In this document: positions 11,446 to 53,167 of the stretch, piece after piece | Position numbering within the stretch: the first letter of the stretch is position 1 | Layout: each line of letters opens with the position of its first letter | Source of the DNA: Mustelus asterias | Lineage: Eukaryota | Assembly (NCBI RefSeq): GCF_964213995.1 | Contig: NC_135806.1 | Span: 79,794,001-79,858,000 of the forward strand | DNA length: 64,000 nt | Direction: 5' to 3' | Program-made: the position numbers and the translations under genes | The notes under the pieces: generated by a model | Told to the model about the DNA's origin: nothing | The model's input: only the letters and a program-made list of their open reading frames with translations | Database searches by the model: none

Positions 11446-11949
11446 GCATGAAATGAACCTATTTTATCCTTATTTTAAAGATTCTAATCAATATTAAGCT
11501 GATTGGCTGTAATTACTTGGATTAGCTTTGTCCTTTTTTTATAACAAAAATTACGACATTAATACAAAAATATTGTGCAAAAGACTAATTAACACAGAGT
11601 CATTTTTCTATTTCTGACTGAGCAGGTGAAACAAAGCATTTGACGTCTATGAAATTGAAGCATTTTCTCCACTGCAATTTTGAGTTTGACCTTTTGTTTG
11701 GACAGTGTTTGATATATTTGGGGTGGCACGATGGCACAGTGGTTAGCACTGCTATCTCACAGCTCCAGGGTCAATTCCAACCTTGGGTGACTCTCTGTGT
11801 GGAGTTTGCACGTTCTCCCCATGTCTGTGTGGGTTTCCTCTGGGTGCTCTGGTTTCCTCCACACTCCAAAGATGTGCAGGTTAGTTAATTCCAGTAAGAA
11901 GTCTCACAACACCAGGTTAAAGTCCAACAGGTTTATTTGGTAGCAAATA

Positions 11950-11986
11950 CCATAAGCTTTCGGAGCACAGCTCCTTCGTCAGATGG
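11950..11986 (-). ncRNA. Minimal type I hammerhead ribozyme (mirror copy)
   Basis: Reverse complement of 12751-12787. Confidence 0.8.
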
Positions 11987-12750
11987 GGTGGATATTTATT
12001 CTCCAACAGTGCACAGACACAGAAATGAAGTTACAGAATACTAATTAGAATGCAAATCTCTACAGCCAGCCAGGTCTTAAAGGTACAGATAATGTGGGTG
12101 GAGGGAGCATTCAACACAGGTTAAAGAGATGTGTATTGTCTCCAGACAAAACAGCTAGTGAGATTCTACAAGCCCAGGAGGCAAGCTGTGGGGGTTACTG
12201 ATAATGTGACATAAATCCAACATCCCGGTTTAGGCCGTCCTCGTGTGTGCGGAACTTGGCTATCAGTTTCTGCTCAGCGACTCTGCGCTGTCGTGTGTCG
12301 TGAAGGCCGCCTTGGAGAACGCTTACCTGAAGATCCAAGGCTGAATGCCCGTGACTGCTGAAGTGCTCCCCCACTTCAGCAGTCACGGGCATTCAGCCTT
12401 GGATCTTCAGGTAAGCGTTCTCCAAGGCAGCCTTCACGACACACGACAGCGCAGAGTCGCTGAGCAGAAACTGATAGCCAAGTTCCGCACACACGAGGAC
12501 GGCCTAAACCGGGATGTTGGATTTATGTCACATTATCAGTAACCCCCACAGCTTGCCTCCTGGGCTTGTAGAATCTCACTAGCTGTTTTGTCTGGAGACA
12601 ATACACATCTCTTTAACCTGTGTTGAATGCTCCCTCCACCCACATTATCTGTACCTTTAAGACCTGGCTGGCTGTGGAGATTTGCATTCTAATTAGTATT
12701 CTGTAACTTCATTTCTGTGTCTGTGCACTGTTGGAGAATAAATATCCACC

Positions 12751-12787
12751 CCATCTGACGAAGGAGCTGTGCTCCGAAAGCTTATGG
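12751..12787 (+). ncRNA. Minimal type I hammerhead ribozyme in the Penelope pLTR
   Basis: CCAT-CTGACGA-A-GGAGC-TGT-GCTCC-GAA-AGCT-T-ATGG: conserved core, stem I, stem II, and a palindromic AGCT in place of stem III. Confidence 0.85.
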
Positions 12788-13074
12788 TATTTGCTACCAA
12801 ATAAACCTGTTGGACTTTAACCTGGTGTTGTGAGACTTCTTACTGTGCTTACCCCAGTCCAACGCCGGCATCTCCACATCAGGTTAGTTAATTGGTCATG
12901 CTAAATTGGCCTTTAGTGTCAAGGAGATTTACACTGTAAATATGTGGGATTATGGGAATAGGGCTTTGGGTTGTTGTCGGTTCAGGCTTGATGGGCCAAA
13001 TGGCCTCTTTCTGTACTGTAGGGATTCTATAAATTTATCCTGACAAGGCAAATGTCTCTCTATAGGGTCATTAT

Positions 13075-13182
13075 TTTCAGCTTTGATGAAGGGGCATCCT
13101 GACTCAAAGCATTGGCTCTATTTTCCCTCCACAGATGTTGTAAGAACTGCTGAGGTTTTCCAGCTTTTCTCTTTCTGATTTG
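13075..13182 (+). mobile_element. Degenerate Penelope family B pLTR fragment
   Basis: Similar to 53020-53225, with a decayed hammerhead core (ttgatgaaggggcatcctgactcaaagc). Confidence 0.6.
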
Positions 13183-14059
13183 GTAGAATTAATCTTAGAG
13201 GGTTTCCCTTATCTTGTTGGGAGGAGAAAGGGCATATCTCTCTCTGAAAAACCCTATTGGTGAGTGTCCTGATGATTCTTCTTCTCATTAGTGGGGTTTC
13301 CTTGGTGGAATAGGCTTTAAATTCTTCAACGATGGGGAGCCTGATTTGTACCTTTGATATGGCTGGAGAGGAGAGAGGTTTGTAATGTTGTGAGCCTTGG
13401 TTCCTGTACATGGGAATGCACTTTGCCAGGCCACATCTTTTACCGATGGAGGTATGCTGAGGTTCCTCTTTTTCTGGGTTATCCTTTCATTGATTAGAAG
13501 TCCTGGGATGTTGAGTTAGGCCCCAGTTCATTATATATTACCTCATGAGGAAACCCATATATTGTGTAGTATATTGTGTCTCTGTTATCCTGTGGAGGAG
13601 GGCATGTACCATGGGGTCACGTGCTCATGATGTTACCCTGTTGTCCAGAGATTTCCTGCCCTTTCTGTATCTTTCTTTATTCATATGAGAGGAAACACCA
13701 ACTACAATGATTGCAATGATTGATAATTTGAATAATTTGTATGGTTTTATGTGGAATAATAATTACACTGTGCCATACTAGGAATTTGTTGTGTATTGTG
13801 GTGAATGTGAAACAGAAAACTTCCAATAAAAACATCTTGAAAAAGAATTAGCCTATTAACCACAGTATCGATATGGTTTGTCCAGTTCAGTTTCATCAAT
13901 CAAGCAGCAGCTCAGAACAACAGTTAACACCCATAGTCTAACCTAATATGATGCCCCAGTTTAACCATAATGCCAAAAATTGCACACGGGGTCCCAACTT
14001 GTCTTAATCTGGACCCAAATAGTTTCATAGACAACATGGTTGGATCATCATAATGATAT

Positions 14060-14413
14060 GGGCAGAACAGGGGTGCACTGGTTAGCATTGCTGCCTCACA
14101 GCACCAGGCACCCGGGTTTGATTCCAGCCTTGGGTGACTGTCTGTGTGGAGTTTGTATGTTCTCTCCGTGTCTGCATGGGTTGCCTCCGGGTGCTCTGGT
14201 TTGCTTCCACAGTCCAAAGATGTGCAGGTTAGGTGGAGTGACCATGGTAAATTGCTCCTTAGTGTCCCAATATGTGTAGGTTAGGTGGATTACACTTGAT
14301 AAATGCTGAAGGATAGAGCAGCAGGTTGGGCCAGGGTAAAAATGTTCTTTTGGAGACTCAGTACAGACTCAATGGGCCAAATGGTCTCCTTCTGCACCGT
14401 AGGGATTCTATGA
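14060..14413 (+). mobile_element. HE1-like SINE (tail A)
   Basis: tRNA-like head, V-core and tail gggccaaatggtctccttctgcaccgtagggattctatga. Confidence 0.88.
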
Positions 14414-14489
14414 TTTGATGAAAAGCTGAATTTGATGACTGAAGTCCTGACACAGGGGCCAAAAGTGGGAGGCAAGCCCATTTAACATT

Positions 14490-14832
14490 GAAACATAGAA
14501 AATAGGGGCATGCGGAGGCCATTCAGCCCATCATTAATTTTGATCATGGCTGATCATCCAACTCGAAGGCTTGATCCCTGCCTTTTCCCCCACATCCTTT
14601 GATTATTTTCACCTCAAGTGCTATATCTAACTGCTTCTTGAAAACATTCAAATTTTTGGCTTTTACTACTTTCTGTAGTAGCGAATTCTATAGGCTGACC
14701 ACTCACTGGGTGAAGGAATTTCTCCTCGTCTCTGGCCTAAATGGTCTATTCTGTATCCTCAGAATGTGACCCCAGGTTCTGGACAGCCCCACCATCGGGA
14801 ACATCCTTCTTGCATCTACCCTGTCCAATCCA
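14490..14832 (-). mobile_element. CR1 3' fragment
   Basis: gaaacatagaa tail; translates as RMFPMVG..RTWGH..ETRRNSFTQ. Confidence 0.85.
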
Positions 14833-15256
14833 ACAGTGACCACAGTGGCACCCAAGGAGGCATATTCCTGGTGGTGACTAATTAAGAAGTAACTGTCCAG
14901 ATTGCAAACCCTATTGAGAATGGCAGCCCACCCACAAGTGCTTCTGGCCCACTCAGAGGGCTGGTAGCTCAGCCCCACCATCACCAGCAGCAGCCATTGC
15001 TGGGGCTGCACCAGCAGGATGAAGGTACATTGATGGCTGAGCACCCTTCAAGACAATGGAGTGGGGTCTGGAGTCAAGCAGCAAACTATCAGTGGAGGCA
15101 GTAAGAATCCCTTAATTAGAGACTTGCATGGCTCAATTGGACTCAATTGGACTGCTAGTAGATGGCCCATCTGCCAATTTTCCCACTGCTGCCTCCCTAC
15201 GCTATTTTGGCAGACTTCCCACCTCCCAGCCTGTCACCAAAAGATGGGAAAAATCC

Positions 15257-15550
15257 ATAGAATAGAATCCCTACAGTACAGAAGGAGGCCATTCGGCCCA
15301 GCAAGTCTGCACCGATCACAATACCACCCAGATCCTATTCCCATAACCCCACATATTTAACCTGTTAATCCCCTGACACTAGGGTCAATTTAGTATGGCC
15401 AATCAACCTAACCCGCATATCTTTGGACTGTGAGAGAAAACCGGAGCACCCGGGGTGAATATGCAAACTCCACACAGTGACCAGAGGCCGGAATTGAACC
15501 TTGTCCCACTGTGAGGCAGCAATGCTAACCACGATGCCACTGTGCCGCCC
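15257..15550 (-). mobile_element. HE1-like SINE (tail A)
   Basis: Reverse-complement head, core and tail. Confidence 0.88.
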
Positions 15551-16825
15551 AAATCCTCCCCCACAGGCCCCGGCTATCACAAATTCTTGCCATGCGGTCC
15601 TCAATTCATTCCTTCTTCTATTCAGAATTGGGATTCACAGAAATTAATTCCAAATTACATTTATCATCTGTCATATGAGCAACAGCAAAAAGACCATGAC
15701 CATTACACTCTGCTGAGTCCACAGTTTGTTGGTGCTCTATAATCCACATACCCACCATTTAACAGTACATTGGCCACCACATATATCGGACATGCTCATA
15801 TCATGCGATCTTTGCTGGCAATGCACGATGAACGGTAAATCCATCGGACTCACTAATAACTGCAAAGCATAAGAGCAAATGTCATTGCTTATCCTAGCTT
15901 TTCCAAAAAACAATTTATTCCAACAGTCAGTACACCAATGAATCTGACAACTTTGCTGACATCAGAGCCCTGAAACCATTTAAGAGGAAGTTAGATTGAC
16001 GGGGGCAATCAGAAACTGGAGCAAACAGTAACCTGACTTGGCATACTTCCAATAACCTCCTGTTTCAATTGTAATTGTCTTTCAAGAACCCTTATATGTT
16101 GGTCAGTAAGAATTTATTGGACAAAGATGCTGCTTCTCAATATACAATTAATGTCACTTGTTTGGGCTCAGATGGAGTGAGGATTTAGTGGCACTGCAAA
16201 CAGCTTCTTGAACCACCCAAAATAAGCTATCCACTACATGCAGTTCAAGTGGCATTTTTGTAGCTGACACCTATGGCAATGATGAATAGTTATCCCCATT
16301 TGTCTGATGTAGATGACAGTGTAAGTGGTGGGGGCTGTATTCCACTATATACTGAAATCCTATTATAAAGAATTTGTCTATACTTAAAAATGTTCCCAAT
16401 GAATCCTAATGAAGTGAAACTGTTCCTATAATGAAATGTTGATAAGACAAAAACACTCCATGACAAAGGCCATGGGCTTTAATAAAGATGTAATCACTCA
16501 CTTTGCCAACAGCAATGTACATCAAGCAGAACATGAAATACATCTAGGTATTATCAAAAACATATTTCATCAAGGTATTTCTTTTAAATAATCAATTATT
16601 TTTATGACAGCTGAACCACAGCTAAACAGATCCACTGTTTTGAGGAAATTTTGCTTCCAAAGAATGCCAAGTTGCAGCTTTGTTTATAGTAGTTGGCCAG
16701 AGATGCCAATGGTGCAGTAACATCCAGATGATTCAGCATAATTGGCAAATAGAAATTATACAGATCAACAGAAACCTATTAAGTGCATAACAAAATTGAT
16801 TAAAGGTCACTACCTGAAACATTGA

Positions 16826-17530
16826 GGGGTATTTTAGACACTCCCACCAGTGTATTTGCAGCTAGGGTGGGCACATAAAATGAAACAGGCGGCTAGCCCA
16901 CTGCCTTCCCTCCACCCCCCGAGCTGACACCCGTATTAGGATGCATGGTTAAGAAATCAGCCAGTCTGCTCGTTCATAAGCTTCTTGAGGCCCTTAAGCG
17001 GCCAGTTTATATCAGTTCAAGGCCTTATTCTGCCTCTGCCACAGTAACACCTGCAGCTGGGGAAGGCAGAACAAAGGAGGCCAGACCACTAGTGTTGTAT
17101 CTTGGGGTAAAAGGCGTAAAGGAAAAGGGAGATATCTTCTCTGAGGAATTGCCTGTGACCATTGGGGGGAGGGGGGCAACCATCTCCAAAATCATAATCT
17201 CCCCCCCACCCTTTGTGCCTCCCCCCCTGGCCTCCAAAAGCCTGCTCCCCCAATCCCATGTCCCCTCACTCGAGTCTCTGATCCCTCCTTGGACTTTCCT
17301 TGAACTCCAGCACCCCTGGATCTTCTGCTCAGGACTACTTGTATCCCCAGCAGTGGCCAATACTATGACCTGGCACTGTTCAGCTGCTGGCCAACAGATC
17401 TCAGGGGAGGGATCTCCAGTCTCTGAGGGCTGGATGTCTCATTTTCTATGACCTGGTTAAGTCACCCCTGGCATACAATTGCTGTGAGGCAGTCCTTTTC
17501 CTAAAGAGTTGGTGGGCTTCTCTAACATTG
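16826..17530. mobile_element. GC-rich non-autonomous DNA transposon-like relic
   Basis: Abrupt GC-rich block sharing short motifs with similar blocks at 14830-15255 and 46970-47550. Confidence 0.35.
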
Positions 17531-18284
17531 GGAGATGGGGGGTGGCGGGGGGGGGGGGGGGGGGGGGGAAATAGGGAGGGGAAAGCAAATGTACTCCTGT
17601 TAAGATTCACCCCGTTATCCTCTTATTTTTCTCTCCATGGATGCCTGACCTGCTGGGATTTTTCAGCATTTTCTGCTCTGTTGTTTTTTAAGTTAACGGA
17701 TTTAAGAACTAACTATCATAGAATATTTGTTATAGAACCAGTTGTAGAGAGAACCATGCCACAGGTTCATGTTTATACCAATTGACTCCTCAATAGTGTG
17801 AATCAATTAAATAGAGGAAATAACATGTCTAAACAAGTGGGACTGATCTCACAATAAATAGCTCAGCGCGATAATTGTGTGTAAGCTTCTGTCATGGCCA
17901 TTATCTGCCTAACCGTGATATCACATTAAGATTCATGTCGGGCCCTACACAACTAGGAAGCCATTTGAGCTTTCCTTAGCTTAAAAAAAAGCCTCAATAA
18001 AATGTGAAGATCTTATGTTGTTGCAGTACACTAAGAGGTGGGGGATACACCAATTGCACTCTGATTATACAGATGTGTAAAATGGAGGATGATGGGTAGG
18101 ATTTTCCTCACAGGCTTCTGGACCTGAAACAAATGGCACCCGGAGCCCGCAGCTGTCAGTAGCCAGGCCGAGAGCTATTTTCCCAGAAGTTGTCTCCTAA
18201 CTTGTCACAATCACAGCAGTCCTGGAGCCCCACCAGGTGAAGCGCTGAGGCAGGTCAAGTATAGGTCAAGTATACCAGAATAAA

Positions 18285-18720
18285 GGCAAAATACCGTGAA
18301 TACTGGAATTCTAAAACAAACCACAGAAAGTACAGTAAACGCCTCGAGTTTGTTTGACTCCAGAACTAAATCAAGGAAGAAATGTGATGGATTATTTACT
18401 ATATAAGAGGGGGGTTTGGCAGTTGGAGCAGAGTAGAAGGTCAGTGATTGGTGGGAGCTAGGAGAGATTGCAATAAAGATGTAGGTCACTAGGTAGAGGG
18501 AGTGTTGATGGCAGGAGAAGGTGCTGGTAGTTGCAAATAGGTAAGATATCAGAATGTCTTAATGGGAGAATCAAGGTCAGTGCTCAGTGAAAGCAAAACT
18601 TAAGAACAAGTGACAGATGGCCTAGTGGGGGAAAGAAGGATATTTTGCATTGGGACAAAAAATACAAGTGTGTCTCAAAATGGAGCCATCCTCTGTAGAG
18701 TGAACATGTTAACTTTTTTT
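18285..18720 (-). mobile_element. Degenerate Penelope-like terminal region
   Basis: Begins gcaaaataccgtgaatactggaattctaaaacaaa, similar to the family B end at 52097. Confidence 0.55.
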
Positions 18721-18831
18721 ACAGAGAGGGGCAAGTAGTTTAGTTTGGAAGGGAATGTCCTCCAGTGTTAGCATTTGGACTGGGTACAGCTGTTGATTCC
18801 AATAGGCTTCCTCTTCAGGGGATAAAGTCTT

Positions 18832-18959
18832 TGGGTGGGATTTTTCGGCCGCACTCACCCCAAAACCGGAAAGTCCCGCCTGAGGTCAACGGACCTTTGC
18901 ATGGTTCGTCCTCTGCCTGCTAGGATTCCTGTGGTGGGCAGGTTGGGAAAATTTCCCCC
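18832..18959. mobile_element. MITE-like element
   Basis: gggtgggatttttc...gaaaatttcccc termini; homologous to the 9868 copy. Confidence 0.7.
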
Positions 18960-21145: not shown

Positions 21146-22355
21146 ACAACAGCATGGCTTTGTGAGTGGAAAACCATGTCTCACAAATTTAATTGTGTTT
21201 TTTGAAGGGGTAACCAAGAAGGTAGATGCGGGCAGTGCAGTTGATGTTGTCTACATGGACTTTAGCAAGGTCTTTGACAAGGTACCGCATGGTAGGTTGT
21301 TGCATAAAGTTAAACCTCATGGGATCCAGGGTGAGGTATCTAAATGGATACAAAATTGGCTTCTTGACAGAATAAGAAGTCTCACAACACCAGGTTAAAG
21401 TCCAACAGGTTCATTTGGTAGCAAAAGCCACTAGCTTTCGGAGCGCTTGCTGTTCCTTCAGTGAGGAAGGTTATCTCCAATTGCAATGGGATCTTGATCA
21501 ATTGGGCCAGTGGGCTGATGAATGGCAGATGGAGTTTAATTTAGACAAATGCGAGGTGATGCATTTTGGTAGATTGAACCAGGGCAGGACTTATTCAGTT
21601 AATGGTACGGCGTTGGGGAGAGTTACAGAACAAAGAGATCTAGGGGTACATGTTCATAGCTCCTTGAAAGTGGAGTCACAGGTGGGCAGAGTGGTGAAGA
21701 AGGCATTCGGCATGCTTGCTTTCATTAGTCAGAACATTGAATACAGGAGTTGGGATGTCTTGTTTAAGTTGTACAAGACATTGGTAAGGCCATACTTGGA
21801 ATACTGTGTGCAATTCTGGTCACCCTATTATAGAAAGGATATTATTAAACTAGAAAGAGTGCAGAAAAGATTTACCAGGATGCTACCAGGACTTGACGCA
21901 TTGAGCTATAAGGAGAGGCTGAATAGACTGGGACTTTTTTCTCTGGAGCATAGGAGGCTGAGGGGTGACCTTATAGAGGTCTATAAAATAATGCGGGGCA
22001 TAGACAAGGTAGATAGTCAATATATTTTCCCAAAGGTAGGGGAGTCTAAAACTAGAGGGCATAGGTTTAAGATGAGAGGGGAGAGATACAAAAGTGTCCA
22101 GAGGGGCAATTTTTTCACACAGAGTGTGGTGAGTGTCTGGAACAAGCTGCCAGAGGTAGTAGTAGAGGCGGGTACAATTTTATCTTTTAAAAAGCATTTA
22201 GATAGTTATATGGGTACAATGGGTATAGAGGGATTTGGGCCAAATGCGGGCAATTGGGATTAGTTTAGGGGTTTAAAAAAAAAGGGCGGCATGGACAAGT
22301 TGGGCCGAAGGGCCTGTTTCCATGCTGTAAACCTCTATGACTCGATGACTCTATG
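21146..22355 (+). mobile_element. CR1 (HER1-like) LINE, RT region to 3' tail
   Basis: ORFs 21162-21398 (YMDFSKVFDKVPH) and 21415-22263; ctctatga tail. Confidence 0.95.
21373..21459 (-). mobile_element. Penelope family A pLTR fragment replacing part of the CR1 RT
   Basis: taagaagtctcacaacaccaggttaaagtcc...; the CR1 QGSVLGP-FADD segment is missing at this site. Confidence 0.85.
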
Positions 22356-23430: not shown

Positions 23431-23431
23431 G

Positions 23432-24286: not shown

Positions 24287-24289
24287 TGA

Positions 24290-24575: not shown

Positions 24576-25442
24576 GACTGAAATGTCACAAGAGAGGGCA
24601 CAAGAAAATGTTTTTTTTTTTGCTTTTCTAATAGACCAAGTGGAACAGAGGTTCTCCTTTACTCTCCATAAGGAAGTCCTGAAGTACTGAGTCGTCCTCA
24701 TACCCATCCATTCTCAACCACTTACCCCATTGCTGGCAAGTGTTTATTTGGGTCTTCGGCAGTGATTTGCAGTCACTTAAAATCTTGCTCATGAGAACTG
24801 GCGATCTTAGGTTTTTTGCCAGCTTCAGGTAGAAGGCTTTGAGCAAGCATGTGGATGATGCCTGGGTCTTAAAATCACACAGGCTTCACACTGCAGGAAA
24901 CCAGATGATTTACCATTAGCTTCAATTCTCATCTGCCCGATTCCAATATGGAGTTCAAAATTCAGCTAATCTGTATCCATCCTCTTATACCATGCTCAGA
25001 TCATGCCTTAATCTCCTCTGTTCTAACAAAAACAACCCAGTTGCGATGTTTGGATTAGTTTTGAATAGCTACAGCCAAGAGCTAACACAAATTTACTCCA
25101 TCTTTTTAAGGCTCTTTATACATATGTTGTTGATGTCAAAATAATTTTGCATTGGTGCTTGATAGATGATCTTCTTAACCTCACCAGATCCTTCTCCTTG
25201 TGATAGTTGAGGCCTACTCTACTTCTTTCTTCATTACATAGCTGAAAAGAAGGTGATTATCTCAATATCTTTCAAAAAAATTGCTGCACATAATCATTTC
25301 AAGAAATTTCTGGATATGTTGTTTGTTAGTAGGAGAAATCATCTGAAATTTCAATAAACTCTGGTTTGAGTCCATTTCCACAGAGGTAACTACAGGTATA
25401 TATTACTTCTTGGTCCTTGAACAACTGGATATTGTTTCATTC

Positions 25443-25578
25443 TGTGGAGATGCCGGCGTTGGACTGGGGTGAACACAGTAAGTAGTCTCACAACACCAGG
25501 TTAAAGTCCAACAGGTTTATTTGGTGCTACCAAATAAACCTGTTGGACTTTAACCTGGTGTTGTGAGACTTCTTACTG
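25443..25578. mobile_element. Penelope family A mini fold-back
   Basis: Tail on the left; 50-bp arms at 25476-25525 and 25529-25578; TSD tattgtttca. Confidence 0.9.
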
Positions 25579-26523
25579 TATTGTTTCACTCAACAGGACT
25601 TCCTTTTTCCATTTGTGGTTCATCAGCACCATGGACCAAAATAACAGCCACTTACTCCAAAGTTTCACATCTTCCGAAGTCCTTCAGGGATTGGAGAAAT
25701 TTCAAAAAAGGTAAATGCAACCAACTGTATTGAAAAGATAATCAGTAGACTTGATTTTTTGCAATAAAAAGTTTCACTTTTGGCAGTTTGGACAGATAAT
25801 AATCAATGGTTTGAAGTGATTGAATTATACTTTGAAGGTTCTGGTACATAATCTTTGGATCAATAAACAAGTGAAATTTATTATTTCCTTTGTTTTTGGC
25901 CATTGAACAAACTTAATGAGTTAGATTTTAAGCTGTGCAAGAACTCTTCTTTCAACAGATTCTTGTTAAATTCTTGCATCTTCAGCTATAGATAGTTTTC
26001 AAACATATTGGTGAAGCTCTGGAGTTAACTCAAAAAAGCAGGACACTTTCTACCTTCTCTTTGAAGACATCTGATTACTTAGTAATTACATATTCTTTTA
26101 TCACATTTAATGAAACATCCATCATAATGTTCTCATGATGCACTGGTTGAATATATTGAACGACTTCAGTCTATATCGATTTGACATGACAGCTGAACTT
26201 CACCATAACAAACTCCAGCCTCCTCCTCCAAACAGAGTTTGCTGGGTGGCCTCCCTGGATGACAAGCCCCTGTCCACCACTGATTAAATACCAGCGAAGG
26301 CAGATGAAGCCCTCAACAGCTACTCAGGGACCCCAAGTTCACTTCCAGGCAAGAAGACTATCCACAAGGCTTCCCACCCTGGACATAATTGGAGGGAGGT
26401 GAAAAGCAAGAATATCTCCACCCACACAGTTGCGCCCCCCCCCCCCCCCCCCCCCCCCAAAAAAAAATTCATTTCTGGAATGGGGCATTAAAGTCTGCAC
26501 ATTGTATTGTACTCAGTCCAGGT

Positions 26524-28711: not shown

Positions 28712-28836
28712 GGGCAGAATTTTACGGCCTCGCTCGAGCAAGACCAGAAATTCCTACCTGAGGTCAATGGACATTTCTGTTGCCCGGCTCTCATCCACCC
28801 TGATTCCATTGTGAGTGGAGCGGTAGAATTCCGGCA
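28712..28836. mobile_element. MITE-like element
   Basis: gggcagaatttt...agaattccggc termini; internal cctgaggtcaatggac shared with the 18832 copy. Confidence 0.65.
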
Positions 28837-29096
28837 CATATTTGGAATACTGTGTACAGTTTTGGTCTCCTTTTTTGAAAAACAAATCTAATTACATTAA
28901 AAGCAAATCAAAGGAGCATCTATTGGTTCATTACTGGGATTAAGGTCTTACCTTAAGAAAGGTTGAACAAGTATTGCCTATACCTACTGGAGCTTAGAAG
29001 AATGAGAGGTGATTTTATTGAAACATATATGGTCCTGAGAGAGTTTGATAGGTTGATATCAGAAGAATGTTTCCTCCTGTGGGGGAAATTAGAACT

Positions 29097-30294
29097 CAGT
29101 AAGAAGTCTAACAACACCAGGTTAAAGTCCAACAGGTTTATTTGGAAGCAAAAGCCACTAGCTTTCGGAACAGGCTGTTCCTTCGTCAGGTGGGTGGGAG
29201 CTCTGATCACAAACAAGGCACAAAGACACAAACTCAGTTTACATGAATAATGATTGGAATGTGAGTCTTTACAGCTAATCAAGTCTTAAAGGTACAGACA
29301 ATGTGAATGGAGGGAGCATTAAGCACAGGTTAAAGAGATGTGTATTGTCTCCAGACAGGACAGCTAGTGAGATTTTGCACATCCAGGCAGGTTGTGGGGG
29401 TTACAGATTGTGTGACATGAACCCAATATCCCGGTTGAGGCCATCCTCATGTGTGCAGAACCTGGCTATCAGTCTCTGCTCAGCGACTCTGCGCTGTCGT
29501 GTGTCGTGAAGGCCGCCTTGGAGAACGCTTACCCGGAGATCAGAGGCTGAATGCCCGTGACCGCTGAAGTGCTCCCCAACAGGAAGAGAACAGTCTTGCC
29601 TGGTGAATATCAAGCGGTGTTCATTCATCCATTGTCATAGCATCTGCATGGTTTCCCCAATGTACCATGCCTCGGGTACATTGTACATGGTATTTTGGGG
29701 AAACCATGCAGACGCTACGACAACGGATGAATGAACACCGCTCGACAATCACCAGGCAAGACTGTTCTCTTCCTGTTGGGGAGCACTTCAGCGGTCATGG
29801 GCATTCAGCCTCTGATCTCCGGGTAAGCGTTCTCCAAGGCGGCCTTCACGACACACGACAGCGCAGAGTCGCTGAGCAGAGACTGATAGCCAGGTTCCGC
29901 ATACATGAGGATGGCATCAACCGGGATATTGGGTTCATGTCACACAATCTGTAACCCCTACAACCTGCCTGGATGTGCAAAATCTCACTAGCTGTCCTGT
30001 CTCAAGACAATACACATCTCTTTAACCTGTGCTTAATGCTCCCTCCACTCACATTGTCTGTACCTTTAAGACTTGATGAGCTGTAAAGTCTCACATTCCA
30101 ATCATTTTTCATGTAAATTGAGTTTGTGTCTTTGTGCCTTGCTTGTGATCAGAACTCCCACCCACCTGACGAAGGAACAGCCTATTCCGAAAGCTAGTGG
30201 CTTTTGCTACCAAATAAACCTGTTGGACTTTAACCTGGTGTTGTTAGACTTCTTACTGTGTTTACCCCAGTCCAACGCCGGCATCTCCACATCA
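29097..30294. mobile_element. Penelope-like element (family A) fold-back palindrome
   Basis: Arms 29097-29660 and 29695-30258 (564 bp) with a 34-nt scrambled centre. ORF 29667-29954 (YFGET..LRQRMNEH) is GIY-YIG. TSD ggaaattagaact. Confidence 0.93.
30162..30200 (+). ncRNA. Minimal hammerhead ribozyme (mirror at 29155-29193, minus strand)
   Basis: CCAC-CTGACGA-A-GGAA..TTCC-GAA-AGCT-A-GTGG. Stem I covaries relative to the 12751 copy (CCAT/ATGG vs CCAC/GTGG). Confidence 0.82.
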
Positions 30295-30971
30295 GGAAAT
30301 TAGAACTAGCAGACACAGTTTAAGAACAAGAAGTCTCCCTTTTAAAAGTAAGGAAGTTTTACTTTAGCTGCACAGGGCCTCGGTGAGATTAAGGGCGGAA
30401 TTTTATGGCCTTGCTCAACAGCGCTGAGGAGATTTTTCTTTCCTCTCAGCGGGTTATTAACATGTGGAATTCTCTTTCCCAGTGAGCAATAAATTGAATG
30501 TTGAATTTTTGATAGATAAGGGAGTTGAGGGTTATGAGGGGTAGACAGAAAAGTGGAGTTCAGGCCACAACTAGATTAGCCATGATTATATTGAATGACA
30601 GAGCAGGCCCGAAGGGATGAATGGACCACTCCTGTTCTTACGTTCCTATTCCCTTTTTTGAAACTTACCTGTAAAGTGGCAGCCATCGCTTTAGACCCCA
30701 CTGGCTACCAAATATTTTGCTCCCACTTGGTAGCCAGCTGCTCTTCCCATCATTTCAATGGGGCAACTGATTGGAGCATCCAAATGATGCCCAGGCATTA
30801 AAATTGTCTGGCTCTCATACTGCCAAAATCACCATTGTTCATCATCTATACCCACCCTGGGTTAAAATTGGGACCCCAAAGTTTTTCCAGCCTTCTCTCA
30901 GAACAGGTTCCATAAAATTAGGAACTGATTGTAGCACCACTTGCAGACATTAGCGATTCTCAGTAACTGAG

Positions 30972-38698: not shown

Positions 38699-38771
38699 CA
38701 GTAAGGAGTCTAACAACACCAGGTTAAAGTCCAACAGGTTTATTTGGTAGCAAACGCCGGCATTTCCACAT
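38699..38771. mobile_element. Penelope family A minimal insertion (73 bp)
   Basis: cagtaagg... inverted end fused to the tail aacgccggcatttccacat; TSD ccagatttagga. Confidence 0.88.
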
Positions 38772-43099: not shown

Positions 43100-44340
43100 A
43101 TACTGCCATTCCTTCCTTCCTAGATGCCTTGTATGTAGGAGTCCTACTATTCTTTGAGCCAGGTCTCCATTATCATCACAACATTACATTTCTACATGGC
43201 TATCTGCTCCTGCAACTCACCAATCTTATTCACGGCACTTTGTGCAGTAACAGTAATTTCAACTTTATGACTTTCCCCCTTACACTAAACTCACCTCACA
43301 CCTGACTATTTGCTACGCTGGTGCCTTCTGTCTCTCCCTGTATTCCATGCACCTTGGAATTTTTCCCTAGTATTTCTTCTGGTTCCTACAGCATGTTCAA
43401 GTTTGTCTTACACTCCCCAAATGACCCTACATGGAAATTAGTCCCAGCTCTGTTTATATGCAACCACAGTAAGAGTTTTAACAACACCAGGTTAGATGGA
43501 GTGGAAATCTTCACTCCATCTGACGAAGGAGCAGCGCTCCGAAAGTTAATGGCATTTGCGGCCAAATAAACCTGTGGGACTTTAACCTGGTGTTGTTAAA
43601 ACTCTTACTGTATTTACCCCAGTCCAACGCCTGCATCTCCACATCATATATGCAACCAGACAGATCTCCCCCAGAACTGATCCCAATGTCCCAGGAATCT
43701 AAAACGTTTCCTCCTGCACTATCTTTTCAGCATGCATTAATTTGCTCAATCCTCCCATGTTTATATTCACTTGTGCATGGTAACAAGAGAAATCCAGAGA
43801 TTACTACTTTTGAGGTCCTGTTTGTTAATTTCCTACTGAACTCACCAAAATCTGACTGCTGGACCACAACATTCTTTCTACATGTGATGGTGGTGCTGAT
43901 GTGAACCACAACTACTGACCCTCCCCCCTCAGAGGGGCCATTCAGTGACATCCTTGACCCTGTCCGCGGAGGGACATCATGCCATCCTGGATTCACATCT
44001 GTGGCCACAGAAATATCTGTGTGTTTCCCTATCAAATTTCCCATCACTATTGCCCTCCCAGTTGCCTCCTTCTGTACAGCTGAACTACCTGCGGTGCTAT
44101 GGAACTGGCTCAGGCTGCACTCCCCAGATGAACAATCACTCTCATCAGTATTCAGAACTGAATGCTGGTTGGAGGGTGAGATGCACATCGGGGACTCCTT
44201 CGCTACCTGCCTGTTTCTTTATAGCTGTATGGTGGTCACCCATTCCCTCTCTCCATGCATATTCTTAAGCTGCCATCATTAAACATGCTAACTACATTGT
44301 GCATGATTCTACCGCACATGACATGTCCATGTCTTATGGG
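43100..44340 (-). mobile_element. CR1 5' region: ORF1 (SGNH/esterase-like) and start of ORF2
   Basis: ORF 43727-44188 reads RAIVMGN...VVVVHIST...RTSKVVISG.LL, typical of the CR1 ORF1 esterase-like domain. Confidence 0.75.
43467..43646. mobile_element. Penelope family A short fold-back with hammerhead (43516-43552)
   Basis: cagtaag start, tail ending catctccacatca, TSD tatatgcaacca. Confidence 0.88.
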
Positions 44341-45489: not shown

Positions 45490-45600
45490 TGTGATTGCCT
45501 GGCGGATAAATGTAGTACCCAGTCAATTCCTGGTCTGGGGCTGAGTTAGCTGATTTCATCTGCGTCATCAGTTAAAGCTGGAATTGGCTTTGGGAGAGAG
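45490..45600 (+). mobile_element. Possible LF-SINE-like relic
   Basis: tcaattcctggtctggggctgagttagctgatttc resembles the LF-SINE 5' core as I recall it. Confidence 0.35.
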
Positions 45601-45877
45601 CGAGAAAGAAAGAGATAGGAATTCATGTCGGACTGTAGTACCAAACAGACAGTATCAGATCAGTCACCCATCATACAGAGCTCCTGCTATTCAGTTCCAT
45701 TGATCCGATACCAAACTGCCCAAGGCAAATGTCTATCCCAAACAGAGAGTCAGGGCCTCCCACTGGCAGCAACACTTTTTGACAGGTGCAAGCATGTTAA
45801 ATGCAAATAAGGGAAATATTATAGAATGTTGAGATGCTCTCACAGTTGAGTGGCCTCTGTTTCTAAGCTCAGTCATT

Positions 45878-46125
45878 GAATCATAGAATCACTTCAGTGC
45901 AGGAGGAGGCCATTCGGCCCATTGAGTTTGCACTGACCACAATCCCACCCAGGCCCTATCTCTATAATCCCATGCATTTATCCCAGCTAGTCCCTCTGAC
46001 ACTAAGGGGCAATCCACCTAACCCGCACATCTTTGGACTGTGGGAGGAAACCGAAGCACCAGGAGGAAACCCACGCAGACACGGGGAGAATGTGCAAACT
46101 CCACACAAACTGTGACCCAAGCCGG
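45878..46125 (-). mobile_element. HE1-like SINE, 5'-truncated
   Basis: Reverse-complement core and tail. Confidence 0.85.
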
Positions 46126-47597
46126 GATGTCAGTCATGAGGCCTGGCTATTTGAATAGTATACCAGGGAATGTCAGCACCTCCAGATGTTGCCATCAGCA
46201 AACCTGGACATATTTGGAGGGGAACATGGAAAATAAAACATCCATAGGTTGACAAGGTCAGTTTCTATATTTTTCTTCAAACAGCTGGGACAAGATGGTG
46301 GCGGTGGGACATGCAAAATGAAAAAAAGACCAAGCAGCCCATTTTGATACAATGGACAGGTAATAGGGCAAACCCTCATGTGCTTTAACCCATGTTTAAC
46401 CAAGTCTCTGCGCCAACCCGACATTTCTATTTCCAACAACAAAAATCGTATAGCTTCTCAGTGAAATTCTCCAGTTAGTATCATTGGCGTACAGTCATTG
46501 GCGGTTTTGGACTATAAAACCATTGTCCTCTGGGAATTGAATAGAGACCGGCCAAACTAATTCCACTTAAGCTCCTTAATAGCTGTCAGAAAAGAGGCTT
46601 TGAACTGGATTCACTAATAACAGGGAACTGCTCGAACCCAATGAACTATTCAATCACTATTTATTTGAATTTTTATCAAGGCAAAAGTTAGTAACCTTAT
46701 GCTTCATTGCAGTTGTTGATATTTAGTAAAATATAACCCTCTGTGTAGAACATGGACATTTCTATCAGGTAGCTGTGTGATCAGTTAGCTATTGCTCTTC
46801 AGTTTCTAATTAGCTTGAATTCAAGGGTGTAGCAAGCTCCTGGGACTATTGATTCCTAGGATGAATATATTTCAGTTGAGCCACAATGTGTCAGTGAATA
46901 ATAAGCTGTTCTCGGATATACTGTGGTTGGCATAGAAATCCACAGCCTGGATTCATCAGCAAATATTCAGGGGCTGGGCTTTTAGCATCTGCTGGGAACT
47001 GAAACAGAGACAGGTGGGTGTTAAAAATAGTATCACTGGTTGGCATGCCAGGTTTTCAGCACCATCCCTATCCCGATCCAAGAATATTATTTTCCCTCAG
47101 ACGGGATGGGCAGAAGGTTGGGGGGATTGGGGGGGGGGGGGGGGGGGGGGCGGTGAGGGAGAGGTGACAGCCTGATTAAAGTCATTAAGAATCCTTTAAA
47201 GCCAACTGAAGGTGGCTGACATTGATTTTCCAGTCGGCCTCCCGGCTCCCAGAGGTGGTCAGGGACAGTTTATCTGCCTGAAGACAGCCAACAGGTGGCA
47301 GACTGGTGGAGAAGGGACTAGCCCTCTAGGCAGACTGAGCGGCCCTCTCTACGTGCCTGGGTGCAGCAGCAGCTGTAGGCCAGCTGAAGGAAATGCCCCC
47401 ACTCTCCCAATCGGCCACACGGGTGGTCCCCGGCTGCAAAGGAAACCTTTTAGTACAAATCTGTCAAGATTGGAGTGATGACACCTCTGTTTTGAAGTGC
47501 CCTCTCCCTTATTCACCTGCCACAACAGGCTTTGTGATTCCATACTGATGGGGGGTAGTAGAGAATTTTTATTATGAGACCATTTATTTTAGTTTAC

Positions 47598-48368
47598 TGT
47601 AATAAGCAGACTAGGTAATTATAAAGTGCCTTGTGAGAATTCACAATGTGCCTGGAACAAAATATGCAAAGGTATTATAAACTGTACAACCACAAATTAA
47701 CCAAGTATTATAAGTTTAAATTATATTTTCTATATATGTATTGTGCCTTGGCCAACTTCGTTCTGAATGCAGCATGATGGGAAATGCAGTGGTAGACACA
47801 CCAATTTTTTTAATGCAATGGAGCACAGAAAGGTAGCTTCTGTTATCTTGGTTATTTGTTTTTGGATATGTGAAAGGCAACTTTAATAGGCCTGGTATTT
47901 AAAGGAGTAAATTCGTTCATGGGTAGCGAGGCTCTCAAGCTAATAAAGGAGGGCCTGGTTCCAGTGAAAGAGCGACTCCTCTCTCCAACTAAAGATCACA
48001 GATGTTAACTATGGCCTTGGTTACTAGTAATGACGTGGTTAGGTTTCCTAGGTAAAGGGGAAGGAACCTACATGGGCAATAAGCTAATAATCTCCTATTC
48101 CTGTTGACAGGTGGAATGTTATTGGCTAAGGTAATAATGGGTAATGTTGAGATTGGGCCCTCCACTCTGATTGACAAGACTGGGTAGGATATTGAAATGT
48201 TCAGAATAATATAATAATTTTACCTTGCAATATTAGCTCAGAGAGGACAGTCAATCCTCATTGACTGTGTCTCTCTCCTGATGCATGCATTAGCAAATAA
48301 ACTCCTTTTAGTTCTTTAACTATATACAGTCTTTCGCAGTCTATGTATTGGTTGAGTGAGGTTCAACA
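47598..48368 (+). mobile_element. Possible solo LTR
   Basis: TGT...ACA ends, TATA-like motif near 48209 and AATAAA near 48296. No clear TSD. Confidence 0.3.
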
Positions 48369-48559
48369 AAATACAGAGCACCCCAGGGGACACCTGAGAA
48401 AATTCCTCTTACACACTCTGGCCAAGAATTGGCAGCTCAGGGAAAATCAAATTGAGAGAAGTGTTCCCATATAGTACAGGCTTCTGGCTCCCATTAGCCT
48501 GATGGTAGGAATCAGAAGCTCATGGAGGAGATCCTGTCAGAATTCCCTAATTATTTAAA

Positions 48560-48895
48560 AAATAGAATGCTGCAGATGCGAAATCTGAAATAAAACTGAA
48601 GATGCTAGAAATGCCCAGCAGGTCAGACAGCATCTCTGGAGAGAAAACCAGAGTTAACTATTCAGGTTGATGAACTTTCATTAGAACTAGGAGAAGTTGG
48701 GGATGAAATAGTTGAGCAAGAGGTGGTTACCATAGCACACCTGCTCTAGGCACCTCTTTTGTGTCAGTTTATTTTCTTGCCTCATTATCATTCCCTTTGG
48801 CCTTGTAAGACAAATGTTTCTGTCATTCAATCTCTCCTGTCTCCCACTTTATCACAGACCTTTCTTTTGCCCATGTCCCTCCCAACTTTGTTAAA
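48560..48895. mobile_element. Degenerate Penelope family B terminal fragments
   Basis: tgctgcagatgcgaaatctgaaataaaac...cagcaggtcagacagcatct matches the 52100 end. Confidence 0.65.
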
Positions 48896-49666
48896 CCACC
48901 TGGGAGCCTGGGGAGCCTATAGTTAGTTCCCTGTCCTGATGAGTGCAAAATGAAAAGTTTTGGCAACATGCCTCTCTTTTCAATAATATTCAAGTTCTGT
49001 ACTAAAAACCTATATCTGTGTATTTTCTAGCAAGGGTTGGGGGAGGGGGGGGTGGTCAGCTGAATAGCAGTTAGCCATGTTAGACCATTTCTGATTTCCT
49101 TCTTCACTAGGGGCACCATTGGTACACCCATCATTATCTGTCATGAGATGAACTAATTAAGAGCATGCTGGGAATTGTACCTCCCTATGGCTGAGCACCA
49201 AAATTTATCAATGGTCAGTTTTTGCTTATTCTGAGGACAGCAACCCATGCAGTGGGTCTGGATTAGGTCAAACCATATAAATTTATGTTAACACATGCAA
49301 ATTGTCAATTTCAGATCTCATTGATCTTAATTTCCCTTATGAACAAGAAATGAGAGTTTTAGACTCATCAGTAAAATGCCCTAATGATTGCAGTGAGTTG
49401 AATGACTTACTTCAGAAACACTCAACAGTGCTAAAATCTTTGATGTTGCACTTATTATTTTATACATATCTAATAAAGCAATTAATGGCAACACTTTGAA
49501 CTGAAAACTCACAGTAAACACTAATGTTTTCCATTAGGCCAGTCTTGATAAGTTAAATTTACAGCATCTGTTACACTTGCTAAATCTGTTACACGATGCA
49601 AAATGTTTAATGCATTCAGTAACTGTAAGTAACAGCTATGGCATACATTTTACCTGGTCTTCTTAG

Positions 49667-49720
49667 CTGTTGGGATGGTACTGTCAGTGTAACAAGACTG
49701 GAATATCTTTGTATGAACAG
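49667..49720 (+). CDS. Candidate 54-nt exon of an unidentified gene
   Basis: Acceptor gtcttcttag and donor cag|gtaagt; open as LLGWYCQCNKTGISLYEQ. Confidence 0.3.
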
Positions 49721-50539
49721 GTAAGTTCTCACAAAATGAATTTGTACCCCGCATCAGTCAAGTCCAACCTTTAAAGTGAGGAACTGCATTCATGTGTTGC
49801 AACAAAGTGGGCCATGTATGATTCAAATGGTTCTGGGCTATGCAGAATCATGATTAATCATGTATAACATGATTTCTAATAAATAATTTCCATAAATACA
49901 GCATTTCAGCAAATTACTTCCAGAGATCACAGAATTTGAGAGTGTTGACAGCACCATGTCATGTTCGTTCTGAGCATTCATATAAAAATATCTATCTATA
50001 AAAAGTCAAACACCTACAGATCACAAAATTTATATACCCTCATAAAACATTCAAATGCTGTGCTGGAAAGTATCTCACTTACTATTTTTGTCAGCTGTTT
50101 TTTCCTTCCTGTTCTCATTATGTTGGCTCCATTTGGTGCTCTCCATTTTCCTAGCCTGGTCTGATTTGCTCTACATTGCTGCCATCCACTGTCACTGGCC
50201 AGCCAGCATAGTGTTCCTCCATTGTTGTGTGCCATTCCCCATATTACAAGTTGACCTGTATCACCAGTCTTTCATTCACAGTTGTTGTCCACTGTCATGT
50301 CCTTTCATCTCCATAACCTATTTGGCCTGTCTAGTGATCTCTGCCACAAACTACACTACTAAATTTCTAAAGAGAATGCAGAAACATTTTGAACCTATTG
50401 GCTGCAGGGAGTTGATAAAGGCTACATCATGATAGGTAGAATAAGATTGGTTATTCCCTCAGTTTTCTGAATCTACCATGACAGCAGTCCTTCCCTATCA
50501 ACCAAGCGCAGAAAGTTTAAAAAGCTGAAGCCAACAACA

Positions 50540-51460
50540 ATAGATGACACAAAAAGAGGTGGGAAGTCAAGTGGTGAGGGTAACACAAAGAGTGTAAAGA
50601 GTAATATAGACAGGTTAAGTGAGTGGGCAAAAATTTGGCAGATGGAATATAATGGAGGAAAACGTCAAAGTTATGAACTTTGGTAGGAAGAATAAAGGAG
50701 CTGAATATTATTTAAATGGAGAAGGACTGCAGAAAGTTGTAGCACAGAGGGCTTTAGGGTTCTCGTGCATAACTCACAAAAAGCTAGCATGCAAGTACAG
50801 CAGGTAATTGGGAAGGCAAATGGAATGTTGGCCTTTATTGCAAAGGGGATGGAGTATAAAAATAGGGAACTCTTGCTAAAACTATACAAGATACTAGTTA
50901 GACCACACTGGGAACACTGCAAACAGTCTTGGTCCCTTTATCGAAGGAAAGGTATAGTGGCATTGGACCCAGTCCAGAGAAGATTCACTAGGTTGCTTCC
51001 TGCTATGGAGAGATTATCTTCTGAGGAGAGGTTGAGTAGGTTGGACCTGTACTCATTGAAATTCAAAAGAATGAGAGGTGACCTTATTGAGACATTAATG
51101 TTCTCAGTGTAGATGCTGAGAAGTTGTCTCCCCTTGTGGGAGAGTCAAGGACCAGAGGACATAATCTCGGAGTAAGGTGTTGCCTCTTTAAGACAGAGAT
51201 GAGGAGGAATTTCTTCTCTCAGTGGGGAGTGAATCTGTGGAATTCTTTACCACAGAGAGCTGTGGAGGCTGGATTGTTAAATATGTTCAAGGCTGAGACA
51301 GACAGATTTTTAATCAGTAAGGGAATCAAGGGTTCCGGGGATAAGGCGGGAATGTGGAGTTGATGATCATCAAATCAGATCAGTCATGATCTCATTGAAT
51401 AACAGAGCATATTCAATAGACAAAGTGATCGATTTCTGTTCCTACACCTTGTGGTCTTAT
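50540..51460 (+). mobile_element. CR1 3' fragment
   Basis: ORFs 50765-51112 and 51124-51363 (KANGMLAFI, EMRRNFFSQ). Confidence 0.9.
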
Positions 51461-51571
51461 AAAAGCACTATTGTACACAGGCACACTGAGAGGAATCAAT
51501 AAGAGACCCACATACTGTGAGTACGCTCACCTGTTTTTAGCCACAGGCTGTCTTAAGCAAAGTCCACTCAC

Positions 51572-51631
51572 CCTCTCCTATGCCATACATTTTAAATACA
51601 ACTGCACTATTGCATGACTTTCCTTCTGAAT
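51572..51631 (-). CDS. Candidate 60-nt exon
   Basis: Acceptor tctctgtctcctctag and donor g|gtgagt; open as SEGKSCNSAVVFKMYGIGE. Confidence 0.25.
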
Positions 51632-53020
51632 CTAGAGGAGACAGAGACATAAATGTGATCTTCAGCATCCCTATCTCTTTCCCACTGTCTAGGTTCCAAG
51701 AGGGCAAATCCACAAGATTAATTGTCCCTCTGTGCAGCCAGAGAGGTAGAGTGATCATTAGACCCCATTGAGCAATGTTAAGATGTTAGATAAGATCTGG
51801 GACCAAATATAGGACAGCGGATTGTGCAAATGCTTTCATAATTGAGAAAAATTGGAATTCAAAGAAATGAATTGTTTTGAGCAACTCCTGGTACCCCTTT
51901 CTCCTAGACCAATTAGTGCAAACATTATTGGGTGCAGTGAAAATACTGAAGACATACACTATGTCAGCTGACAGGGCAATGCTGCAAGTAAATAAAATTA
52001 ATCAAAGACTCTATGAATACACTGTTATTCATATCTGCAATAATGAATAACTCAGAAGAAATAATCAACATTTCTCCCTGGACAGGATGTTAATGTAAAA
52101 GCAAAATACTGCGAATGCTGGAATCTGAAACTAAAACAGAAAATGCTGGAAAATCTCAGCAGGTCTGACAGCATCTGTGGGGAGAGAATAGAGCCAACGT
52201 TTTGAGCCTAGATGACCCTTCGTCAGAGCTGAGAGCAAAGAGAATCAGCAGAGATTTATACTGTGAGGTTGGGCGGGAGTGGGGGATGCCCCTTTACCTC
52301 CTCCCTGCTCACCAGCCCAGGTCCTAAACACTCCTTTCAGGTGAAGCAGTGCTTCACATGCACCTCCTTCAATCTGGTCTATTGTATTTGCTGCTCCCAA
52401 TGTGGCCTACGCTACATTAGGGAGACCAAACATAGACTAGGAGATTAACTTGCCGAACACCTTAGTTCAGTCCGCAAACAGGAGCCAGACCTTCCTATTG
52501 CTTGCCACATCAACACTCCACCCTGCTCTCCTGTTCACATGTCCGTCCTTGGCCTTTTGCAATGTTCCAGTGAACCCCAAGGCAAACTGGAGGAACAGCA
52601 CCTCATCTTCCGATTGGGCATTTTATAGCCTTTTGGACTGAACACTGAGTTCAACAACTTCAGAGCATGAACTCCATCTTCACCCCAATTCCATTTACTT
52701 TATTTCATTTTGTTTCATCTCATTCATCCATTTTATCATCCTTCTCTCTCACTTCCATTTTTCCACTTCTCCATTCCTGCTCTCCTTCTTGCTCCTTCTA
52801 TCCACCCCTCACTCCTTTCAGGGCAACTGCCACATTCCTCAGGCAGTCCTTTAACAATCTGTAGTTCTGTTCTGCCGTTCATACATTCTGATCACTTAAT
52901 GGACACTTTTAGCACCTTCTCAACCTTCTGTATCTTCATTTACATTCCCTTTGCCTCATTCCAACCCTCGCCCCCTTCCCATCCTCATAGTATAAATCTC
53001 AGCTGATTCTCTTTGCTCTC

Positions 53021-53059
53021 AGCTCTGACGAAGGGTCATCCGGACTCGAAACGTTGGCT
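53021..53059 (+). ncRNA. Minimal hammerhead ribozyme (family B)
   Basis: AGCT-CTGACGA-A-GGGTC..GACTC-GAA-ACGT-T-GGCT, with palindromic ACGT. The mirror at 52192-52230 has GAAA mutated. Confidence 0.8.
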
Positions 53060-53070
53060 CTATTCTCTTC

Positions 53071-53167
53071 CAGTAAGGAGTCTCACAACACCAGGTTAAA
53101 GTCCAACAGGTTTATTTGGTAGCAAATACCATAAGCTTTCGGAGCACTGCTCCTTCGTCAGATGGAG
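53071..53167 (-). mobile_element. Penelope family A pLTR piece with hammerhead (53129-53165) nested in the family B pLTR
   Basis: cagtaagg start; TSD ttctcttc. Confidence 0.88.

Follow-up and report, generated by a model that had tools for sequence, protein, structure and literature searches.

The window, that is, the whole 64,000-nt stretch of Mustelus asterias DNA analyzed here (RefSeq assembly GCF_964213995.1, contig NC_135806.1, positions 79,794,001 to 79,858,000 of the forward strand), holds seven truncated insertions of an endonuclease-bearing (EN+) Penelope-like element (PLE) with motifs of the Neptune/Nematis type. In these and related copies across the genome, two-armed insertions combine, with a single exception, one tailed and one tail-less end, and the prevailing target site is a spaced palindrome. 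We consider it probable that such insertions arise through a symmetric double cut yielding two 3' overhangs, which are primed at two start sites of one RNA, followed by central joining of the two cDNAs. The inverted arm, the one-sided tail, and two reverse-transcription start sites have been described previously (PMC8557442, PMC3846280, PMC11167929); this is a known kind of element with a known layout, the integration geometry of which is unusually clear and testable here. The formation of the tandem and inverted structures and of the one-sided tail is named as open in PMC8557442, and the steps after priming are left unvalidated in the main text of PMC11167929.

One Tailed and One Tail-Less End per Insertion

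The discovery set consisted of the window and 140 loci (1,065,770 nonredundant bases); the loci were best hits, segments of contig C1 (10 or 3 kb), each with an exact core match at its center, and 200 kb adjacent to the window. From this set, 90 head-to-head pairs and 88 unpaired ends were parsed automatically; removal of two pairs (one re-parsed by hand, the other with a tail-only arm 94 bp from its partner) and manual addition of eight complex pairs resulted in 96 insertions, 95 of which were used for arm statistics, with one mis-parsed copy left out. The same rules were applied to a hold-out set of 36 new 10-kb loci, 31 centered on core matches and five arbitrary. Both sets are weighted to C1 and to well-preserved copies.

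Tail pairing was counted on 147 parsed two-armed insertions. If the start site were chosen independently at each end, half of the pairs would be of the same type. Instead, 146 insertions had one tailed and one tail-less end, including 96/96 in the discovery set, 34/34 in the hold-out set, 12/13 in a set of long copies (from 20 loci fetched for the far ends of such copies), and 4/4 of the apparent double-tail insertions; none had two tails, and one, L180, had two tail-less ends and no target site duplication (TSD). The four fetched candidates for double-tailed copies were rejected as such, being tail-less ends lengthened by target matches. In 4 of the 96 discovery insertions, the outer end of the tail-less arm was eroded. 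As a rough genome-wide check, the tail directly follows 28,478 of 56,031 exact cores.

Both ends are narrow zones rather than points. Tail-less ends fall within ~12 nt, at template positions -8 to +3 around CTTACTG (20 of 76 exactly at 0), and tailed ends at +31 to +43, with the mode at +35/+36 (n = 79). The unpaired ends with a TSD that were read by eye (n = 25) included 17 tail-less and 8 tailed ones, and five of these 17 single tail-less arms, also by eye, bear an inverted 6-15-nt start of the tail end.

A Spaced Palindrome as the Target Site

TSDs were detected in 84 of the 96 discovery insertions, with a peak at 12-13 bp (52 of the 84); among 300 shuffled end pairs, serving as the null, one attained the score required for a call. 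The rebuilt empty sites form a spaced palindrome, YCTG-NN-[12]-NN-CAGR, with the TSD located inside TG-N2^N12^N2-CA. Among the 72 distinct sites that remained after removal of 12 similar ones, TG-N16-CA was centered on the TSD in 43, compared to 1.4 expected (maximum of 6 in 200 controls); a spacing of 17 occurred in 15 of the 72 sites (1.6 expected), and each of the remaining spacings in 0-5. The motif was recovered in 17 of 28 hold-out sites (0.6 expected) and in 9 of 10 long copies, and each of the five reference subfamilies has it. Two-fold symmetry combined with a constant stagger would be the expected trace of a dimer that cuts both strands.

Sites can also be hit more than once. One site in an abundant repeat resembling a long interspersed nuclear element (LINE), at 21361-21372 of the window and close to the target motif, has been struck repeatedly by different subfamilies (L176, L177, L192-L194, and others). 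At L030:901-1985, one insertion lies inside the TSD junction of another, where the element's own CAG end may have supplied a half-site.

Probable Priming at Both Target Ends

We compared target and template at 53 motif sites, with the cut positions set by the motif and with trimmed ends and non-templated starts omitted. The mean match just past the first copied base was 1.2 at the tail-less end, compared to 0.53 in permutations (n = 41, p = 2e-4), and 1.4 at the tail end, compared to 0.49 (n = 45, p = 2e-4), with matches of 1-4 nt being in excess at both target ends. The small hold-out set gave 1.62 vs. 0.71 (n = 8, p = 0.004) and 1.17 vs. 0.54 (n = 12, p = 0.002), respectively. These matches fit 3' overhangs serving as primers, and such microhomology at priming would explain why the end positions wander. 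Taken alone, priming at both ends is very likely.

Tail ends at +37 to +43 follow the start of the open reading frame (ORF), and some copies run up to 1.35 kb beyond the full unit, which argues that the templates are tandem or circular and that initiation is internal. At G000:C6:79920018-79920185 (L127:2018-2185), the second arm seems to open with ~9 nt of the tail end, followed by a jump to about +125 in the ORF and a back-copy to +28, as if the template continued beyond the tail.

Matched Arms and Private Junctions

In 48 of 82 survey copies, compared to 12.3 expected, the inner ends of the two arms are no more than 20 nt apart (signs 20/8/20), as they are in 18 of 34 hold-out copies, compared to 7.1 expected (BLAST ends). 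Among the copies with a longer arm of at least 300 nt, this holds for 5 of 27 (1.4 expected), and equal inner end points were found far from the predicted ribozyme cut (-550/-550, -848/-857, and -975/-981). That the template position, rather than the arm length, is equal points to a shared template; two reverse transcriptases moving in step can be rejected, with the predicted +35 offset found in 2 of 95 copies. Where the arms differ by more than 20 nt, either can be the longer one (tail-less in 18 and tailed in 16 survey copies; 7 vs. 9 in the hold-out set), which rules out a tail always located on the shorter arm.

Of 2878 subfamily-diagnostic sites compared between arms, 2802 were concordant and 76 discordant, although both of two subfamily groups show arm divergence of 0-3%. 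Of 75 insertions, none was clearly of mixed subfamily; the two flagged ones are an old copy with five sites and a probable projection artefact. Several arms end near template positions -550 to -586, with fillers that repeat one short motif (window 29660-29690, L011:1600-1630, L099, and L134), and this region is a possible pause site.

The central junctions (n = 95) contain filler in 41 cases and overlap in 45, 6 being blunt and 3 long. Among the 21 longer fillers, 12 are copies of sequence from the arms close by (2.6 expected). Of 51 junctions without filler, eight are too tight to accommodate a 3-nt hairpin loop; four of these eight are perfect palindromes on a 2-4-nt self-complementary center, two of them without arm differences. 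Two pairs of copies share a junction, and these two junctions, the only ones counted in this manner, occur 3 and 2 times genome-wide; given this rarity, the palindromes appear to be mostly made at each site.

The two shared junctions differ in setting. L047 and L048 (G000:C1:460.6 kb and 462.5 kb), 1.8 kb apart, have a common junction and private variants, different TSDs, and the tail on opposite arms; local gene conversion or local re-copying is as likely here as re-mobilization. The junction common to L069 and L102 (G000:C1:1.266 Mb and 2.390 Mb), which lie 1.1 Mb apart and have different TSDs, includes a GGGGG filler and occurs at no other place in the genome. Re-mobilized palindromes as a family were rejected, given just 3 and 2 copies of the shared junctions, the third copy of the first lacking the private variants.

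A Model of Integration and Its Alternatives

In the mechanism that we favor, the element's own endonuclease, probably a dimer, would cut both strands of the spaced palindrome YCTG-NN^N12^NN-CAGR, with both the dimer and the polarity of the overhangs being presumed. Reverse transcription of a single RNA would start from both 12-13-nt 3' overhangs, with one of them priming in the tail-less start zone and the other in the tail-end zone, ~35 nt further 3'. The 3' primer would follow and displace the first cDNA, so that both cDNAs would often halt at the same template position, and either primer could stall early, giving unequal or one-armed copies. The two cDNA 3' ends would then be joined by microhomology or a short templated filler, and gap filling would yield the TSD, the mirror-image copy likely being made afresh at each landing site. 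Central joining of this type resembles polymerase-theta-type end joining. We lean, by a narrow margin over even, toward the broader view of a retrotransposon with the geometry of a DNA transposon, in which a dimer reads a spaced palindrome and breaks both strands in a concerted manner, leaving 12-nt 3' overhangs, and both ends are primed on two set sites of one RNA, the second reverse transcriptase displacing the first cDNA, as the normal route of EN+ PLEs. If true, the tail, the inverted arm, and the TSD would be accounted for in one step.

Priming at two fixed positions with central joining had been proposed in a sequence-only reading of the window. The two-position scheme fits every test run, drawing on the one-tail rule (146/147), microhomology at both ends, the freedom of either arm to be longer, the 8/51 loop-less junctions, and the private junctions; the fixed character of the positions, which are two zones each ~12 nt wide, is not supported. 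The observations that were named in advance as speaking against the scheme, namely random arm ends or a lack of TSDs, and clades of identical elements, were not made, and the symmetric target motif was missed in that reading.

Several points weigh against the favored mechanism. Its support is a genomic footprint throughout, from which the mechanism is inferred. L180, with its two tail-less ends, breaks the pairing rule; 29 of the 72 distinct target sites lack TG-N16-CA; and, of the window's five two-armed insertions, only those at 38699 and 43467 have the exact motif, the copy at 11892 scoring poorly. The subfamily concordance of the arms is also expected if one source dominates in the cell or if the arms convert each other. 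Among 13 young best-hit copies, the tail-less arm is longer by 10:1, which is unexplained, and a nearest-neighbor test of partner arms was uninformative to negative (16 closer, 10 tied, and 34 not, of 60). PAc, a Poseidon element of Anolis carolinensis studied in vitro, shows a 5'-ATT preference, with no target/template homology reported in the main text (PMC11167929). Finally, a hairpin loop could be accommodated at 43 of the 51 junctions without filler.

The last point bears on the best-surviving alternative, in which both ends are primed, one cDNA remains short, and the long one, which may stem from either primer, folds back, copies itself, and anneals to the short one. Fold-back would equally yield the one-tail rule, identical arms, differences of either sign, and near-equal arms; self-priming has been proposed for such elements (PMC3846280), one center coincides with a native 14-nt hairpin, and the copying of nearby arm sequence by longer fillers is in line with it. 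The eight junctions too tight for a 3-nt loop, including the four perfect palindromes, are difficult to obtain in this way, and arm asymmetries of up to 2.7 kb would require very large loops. The footprints cannot fully separate the leading explanations, and we regard fold-back of a long cDNA as unlikely.

Somewhat less probable still is a dimer with two separate RNA copies, such that each target end is extended on its own RNA and an asymmetric complex sets the start site per end. Minimal hammerhead ribozymes of these elements are thought to act as dimers, as stated in the relevant passage of PMC4209133, and the motif described below, with its palindromic AGCT and covarying stem, would be compatible with this. 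With independent templates, however, the inner ends would not be expected to coincide at positions far from the ribozyme cut, and mixed-subfamily insertions did not clearly appear among the 75.

We assign a very low probability to a single first strand that is primed at the tail end and folds back, with the tail-less end resulting from endonuclease resolution of the intermediate. This scheme combines suggestions found in the corresponding sections of PMC8557442, where the tail is ascribed to EN-mediated resolution, and PMC3846280, where palindromes are ascribed to self-priming, and it would give one tail per insertion. It is already contradicted by the arm lengths (18 vs. 16), given that the tailed arm should always be longer, and leaves unexplained the microhomology at the tail-less end, the 17 single tail-less arms with a TSD, and the tail-only arms. 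Short palindromes moved as units by a DNA transposase, like miniature inverted-repeat transposable elements (MITEs), can be dismissed almost entirely: the inverted ends, the TSDs, and the junctions shared by two pairs of copies speak for them, but the ends are unequal owing to the tail (0/147 with a tail at both ends, so that equal terminal inverted repeats are not present), the arms grade up to beyond a full unit encoding the reverse transcriptase (RT) and endonuclease (EN), and the shared junctions, occurring 3 and 2 times in the genome and in one pair with the tail on opposite arms, already contradict this explanation.

Relation to Known Systems

In the descriptions of typical EN+ PLE insertions in PMC8557442 and, for Pen2a_Av of Adineta vaga, in PMC3846280, an inverted 5'-truncated copy is accompanied by a TSD and a 30-40-bp tail. 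In these passages, the tail is optional, EN-mediated resolution or self-priming is proposed, and no pairing rule, target motif, or two-ended priming is given; in the present element, the pairing is near-obligatory, the TSD is 12-13 rather than 8-10 bp long, and the target is a spaced palindrome. According to the main text of PMC11167929, two internal RT start sites of PAc bracket its tail, both strands are cut and extended in vitro, a dimer is predicted, and ribozyme cleavage is not required; stagger, TSD, and inverted structure are not discussed there. PAc belongs to another clade, and its tail lies >100 nt inside the ORF (PMC11167929), unlike the tail here, which ends at the first in-frame ATG. 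The footprints supply concrete parameters that could be tested directly in vitro with the published assay, namely one start site per end, a stagger of 12-13 nt, and a duplex with TG-N16-CA. Our literature search returned no published two-ended priming or spaced palindromic target for these elements; older key reviews and supplementary figures may bear on this.

In L1 twin priming, reportedly (Ostertag and Kazazian), both nicked target strands prime on one RNA and the cDNAs are joined by microhomology, leaving an inverted insert inside one TSD, with the internal position of the second primer said to vary and the two parts said not to overlap. In the element described here, by contrast, the start zones of the two arms are narrow and separated by ~35 nt, and the arms overlap completely, the same 3' end being copied twice to form a palindrome. 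Integration would work like twin priming but does not give an L1-type product.

The insertions share with MITEs and other DNA transposons with terminal inverted repeats, as characterized in the pertinent part of PMC8969392, short inverted-ended inserts, a TSD, and a symmetric target preference, and differ from them in unequal ends, private centers, and an RT-EN-coding parent; the counts of the two shared junctions gave no clades of identical copies. Such copies risk mis-annotation as MITEs or hairpin RNAs, and the palindrome centers gave sub-threshold matches to microRNA precursors.

The Element and Its Coding Capacity

One 34-mer of the element end has 158,145 exact matches across the 3.68-Gb genome. 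L011 is a nearly complete natural copy, with an inverted tailed arm, a partial 5' pseudo-long terminal repeat (pLTR), the ORF, and a tail-less 3' end. The single ORF encodes an RT: L098 retains an open stretch of 883 aa that matches Pfam RVT_1 (E 3.7e-10) and includes a KPADKGG motif. A C-terminal GIY-YIG domain (PF01541) was detected on a piece of L011 at E 1.7e-4 and 22.3 bits, just under the 22.6 cut-off, and was absent from the Pfam results for the whole L098 protein. On reading L011 and L098, we found the CCHH motif of the GIY-YIG endonuclease, with two Cys between VVY and YIG and two later His, as well as a CX2-5CxxC linker between RT and EN, CHSNLCKTC (CX4CxxC). In the passages of PMC8557442 that define these groups, the CCHH-bearing GIY-YIG endonuclease is a defining trait of EN+ PLEs and the linker is given for Neptune and Nematis; the assignment to the Neptune/Nematis type suggested here is based on these motifs. 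No solved structure of a relative was found at E <= 0.01.

The layout is likewise that of EN+ PLEs. A partial tandem pLTR with an inverted 5'-truncated copy was seen in L011 and in 30 loci spanning the tail-ORF junction, and the tail has the 30-40-bp length given for such elements. In full-length copies, the ORF's first in-frame ATG comes immediately after the tail; at L011:1711-1749, the tail-end start zone coincides with this ATG. The pLTR contains a hammerhead motif with the core boxes and the palindromic AGCT, stem I of which covaries (CAT:ATG/CAC:GTG), with pairing in 139 of 152 matches; cleavage is predicted, and an Rfam search gave no hammerhead family match for the motif.

Three further candidate features were rejected. 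A footprint of the ribozyme cut was sought in the inner ends, 10 of which lie within 1 nt of the predicted cut, compared to 4.3 expected (p 0.013), a weak excess made up in part of BLAST ends. Inner ends cluster near -100 (36/164 at -110 to -91; some of these may represent alignment drop-off), as a sharp RNA 5' end would predict, yet copies that extend across the ORF start have 5' ends spread between -6 and -1351. Lastly, a predicted RNA stem encloses the tail-less start site, but with z = -1.2 and an inner hairpin broken by subfamily variants.

The Seven Insertions in the Window

Self-BLAST and direct reading agree on seven related inserts, at the places where the sequence-only reading had put them. 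They belong to one type of PLE, as had been claimed, and fall into several subfamilies rather than a single family series. Six tail-less ends read CAGTAAG, in agreement with the breakpoint described for the window, which in the wider sample dissolves into the zone around template position 0; the copy at 53071 shares its C with the TSD, that at 11892 has one extra C, and the end of the copy at 21373 begins 3 nt further in. The tail was correctly placed in five copies, that at 38699 retaining merely its last ~20 nt. TSDs are present in six copies, as noted before, at lengths of 9-14 bp rather than 8-13. Five of the seven insertions are head-to-head and two-armed; each pairs a tailed with a tail-less end, and their TSDs measure 14, 10, 13, 12, and 12 bp.

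The first insertion (11891-12879; 989 bp) is flanked by a maximal TSD of 14 bp, the left copy at 11877..11890 (+) and the right one at 12880-12893. Its tail-less arm (11892..12374, -; template -482 to 0) is preceded by the extra C at 11891 and retains a C-terminal remnant of the GIY-YIG endonuclease frame (12195..12372, -), the translation of which matches the ORF end of L011 and L098. The tailed arm (12372..12879, +; template -473 to +34) overlaps the first by 3 nt at the center and ends with the tail (12846..12879, +); the arms differ at 2 of 474 positions. This arm includes a minimal hammerhead ribozyme motif (12752..12786, +; CAT-CTGACGA...GAAAGCTT-ATG), with the cut predicted before 12784.

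The second insertion (21373..21459, -) is a tail-less arm from -3, without a tail or a TSD; half of the target motif borders it on the left, and it replaces ~178 bp of a host repeat, as judged from the homolog at 61021-62076. The third (25440..25578; 139 bp) has the tailed arm on the left and the tail-less arm ending at 25578, within a 10-bp TSD (25430-25439 and 25579-25588). The fourth (29097..30294; 1198 bp) consists of a tail-less arm on the left (-579), a 9-nt templated filler, and a tailed arm on the right (-572 to +36), enclosed by a 13-bp TSD (29084-29096 and 30295-30307). The fifth (38699..38771; 73 bp) joins a tail-less arm to a second arm of tail only (about +16 to +34), and the sixth (43467..43646; 180 bp) contains a 27-nt tail-less arm, a 17-nt filler, and a tailed arm (-98 to +36); both have a 12-bp TSD in a TG-N16-CA site.

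The seventh insertion (53072..53167, -) has just one arm, which is tail-less and reaches -97; its partial TSD measures 9 bp (53063-53071 and 53168-53176). Its host is a second repeat with a hammerhead-like core, probably another PLE family, arranged head-to-head around ~1.1 kb (52099-52273, -, and 52978-53230, +); the same site of this repeat has also been struck at L100:8667.

Other Observations

Identical copies with identical flanks were encountered on several contigs, in the groups L021, L022, and L027; L147, L153-L155, L168, and L170; and L148, L150, L169, and L174. Some of them adjoin 35-bp tandem arrays and have spread as part of larger duplicated units. The window also contains a perfect 62-bp inverted repeat pair (9303-9364 and 9664-9725), ~300 bp apart and unrelated to the PLE family.

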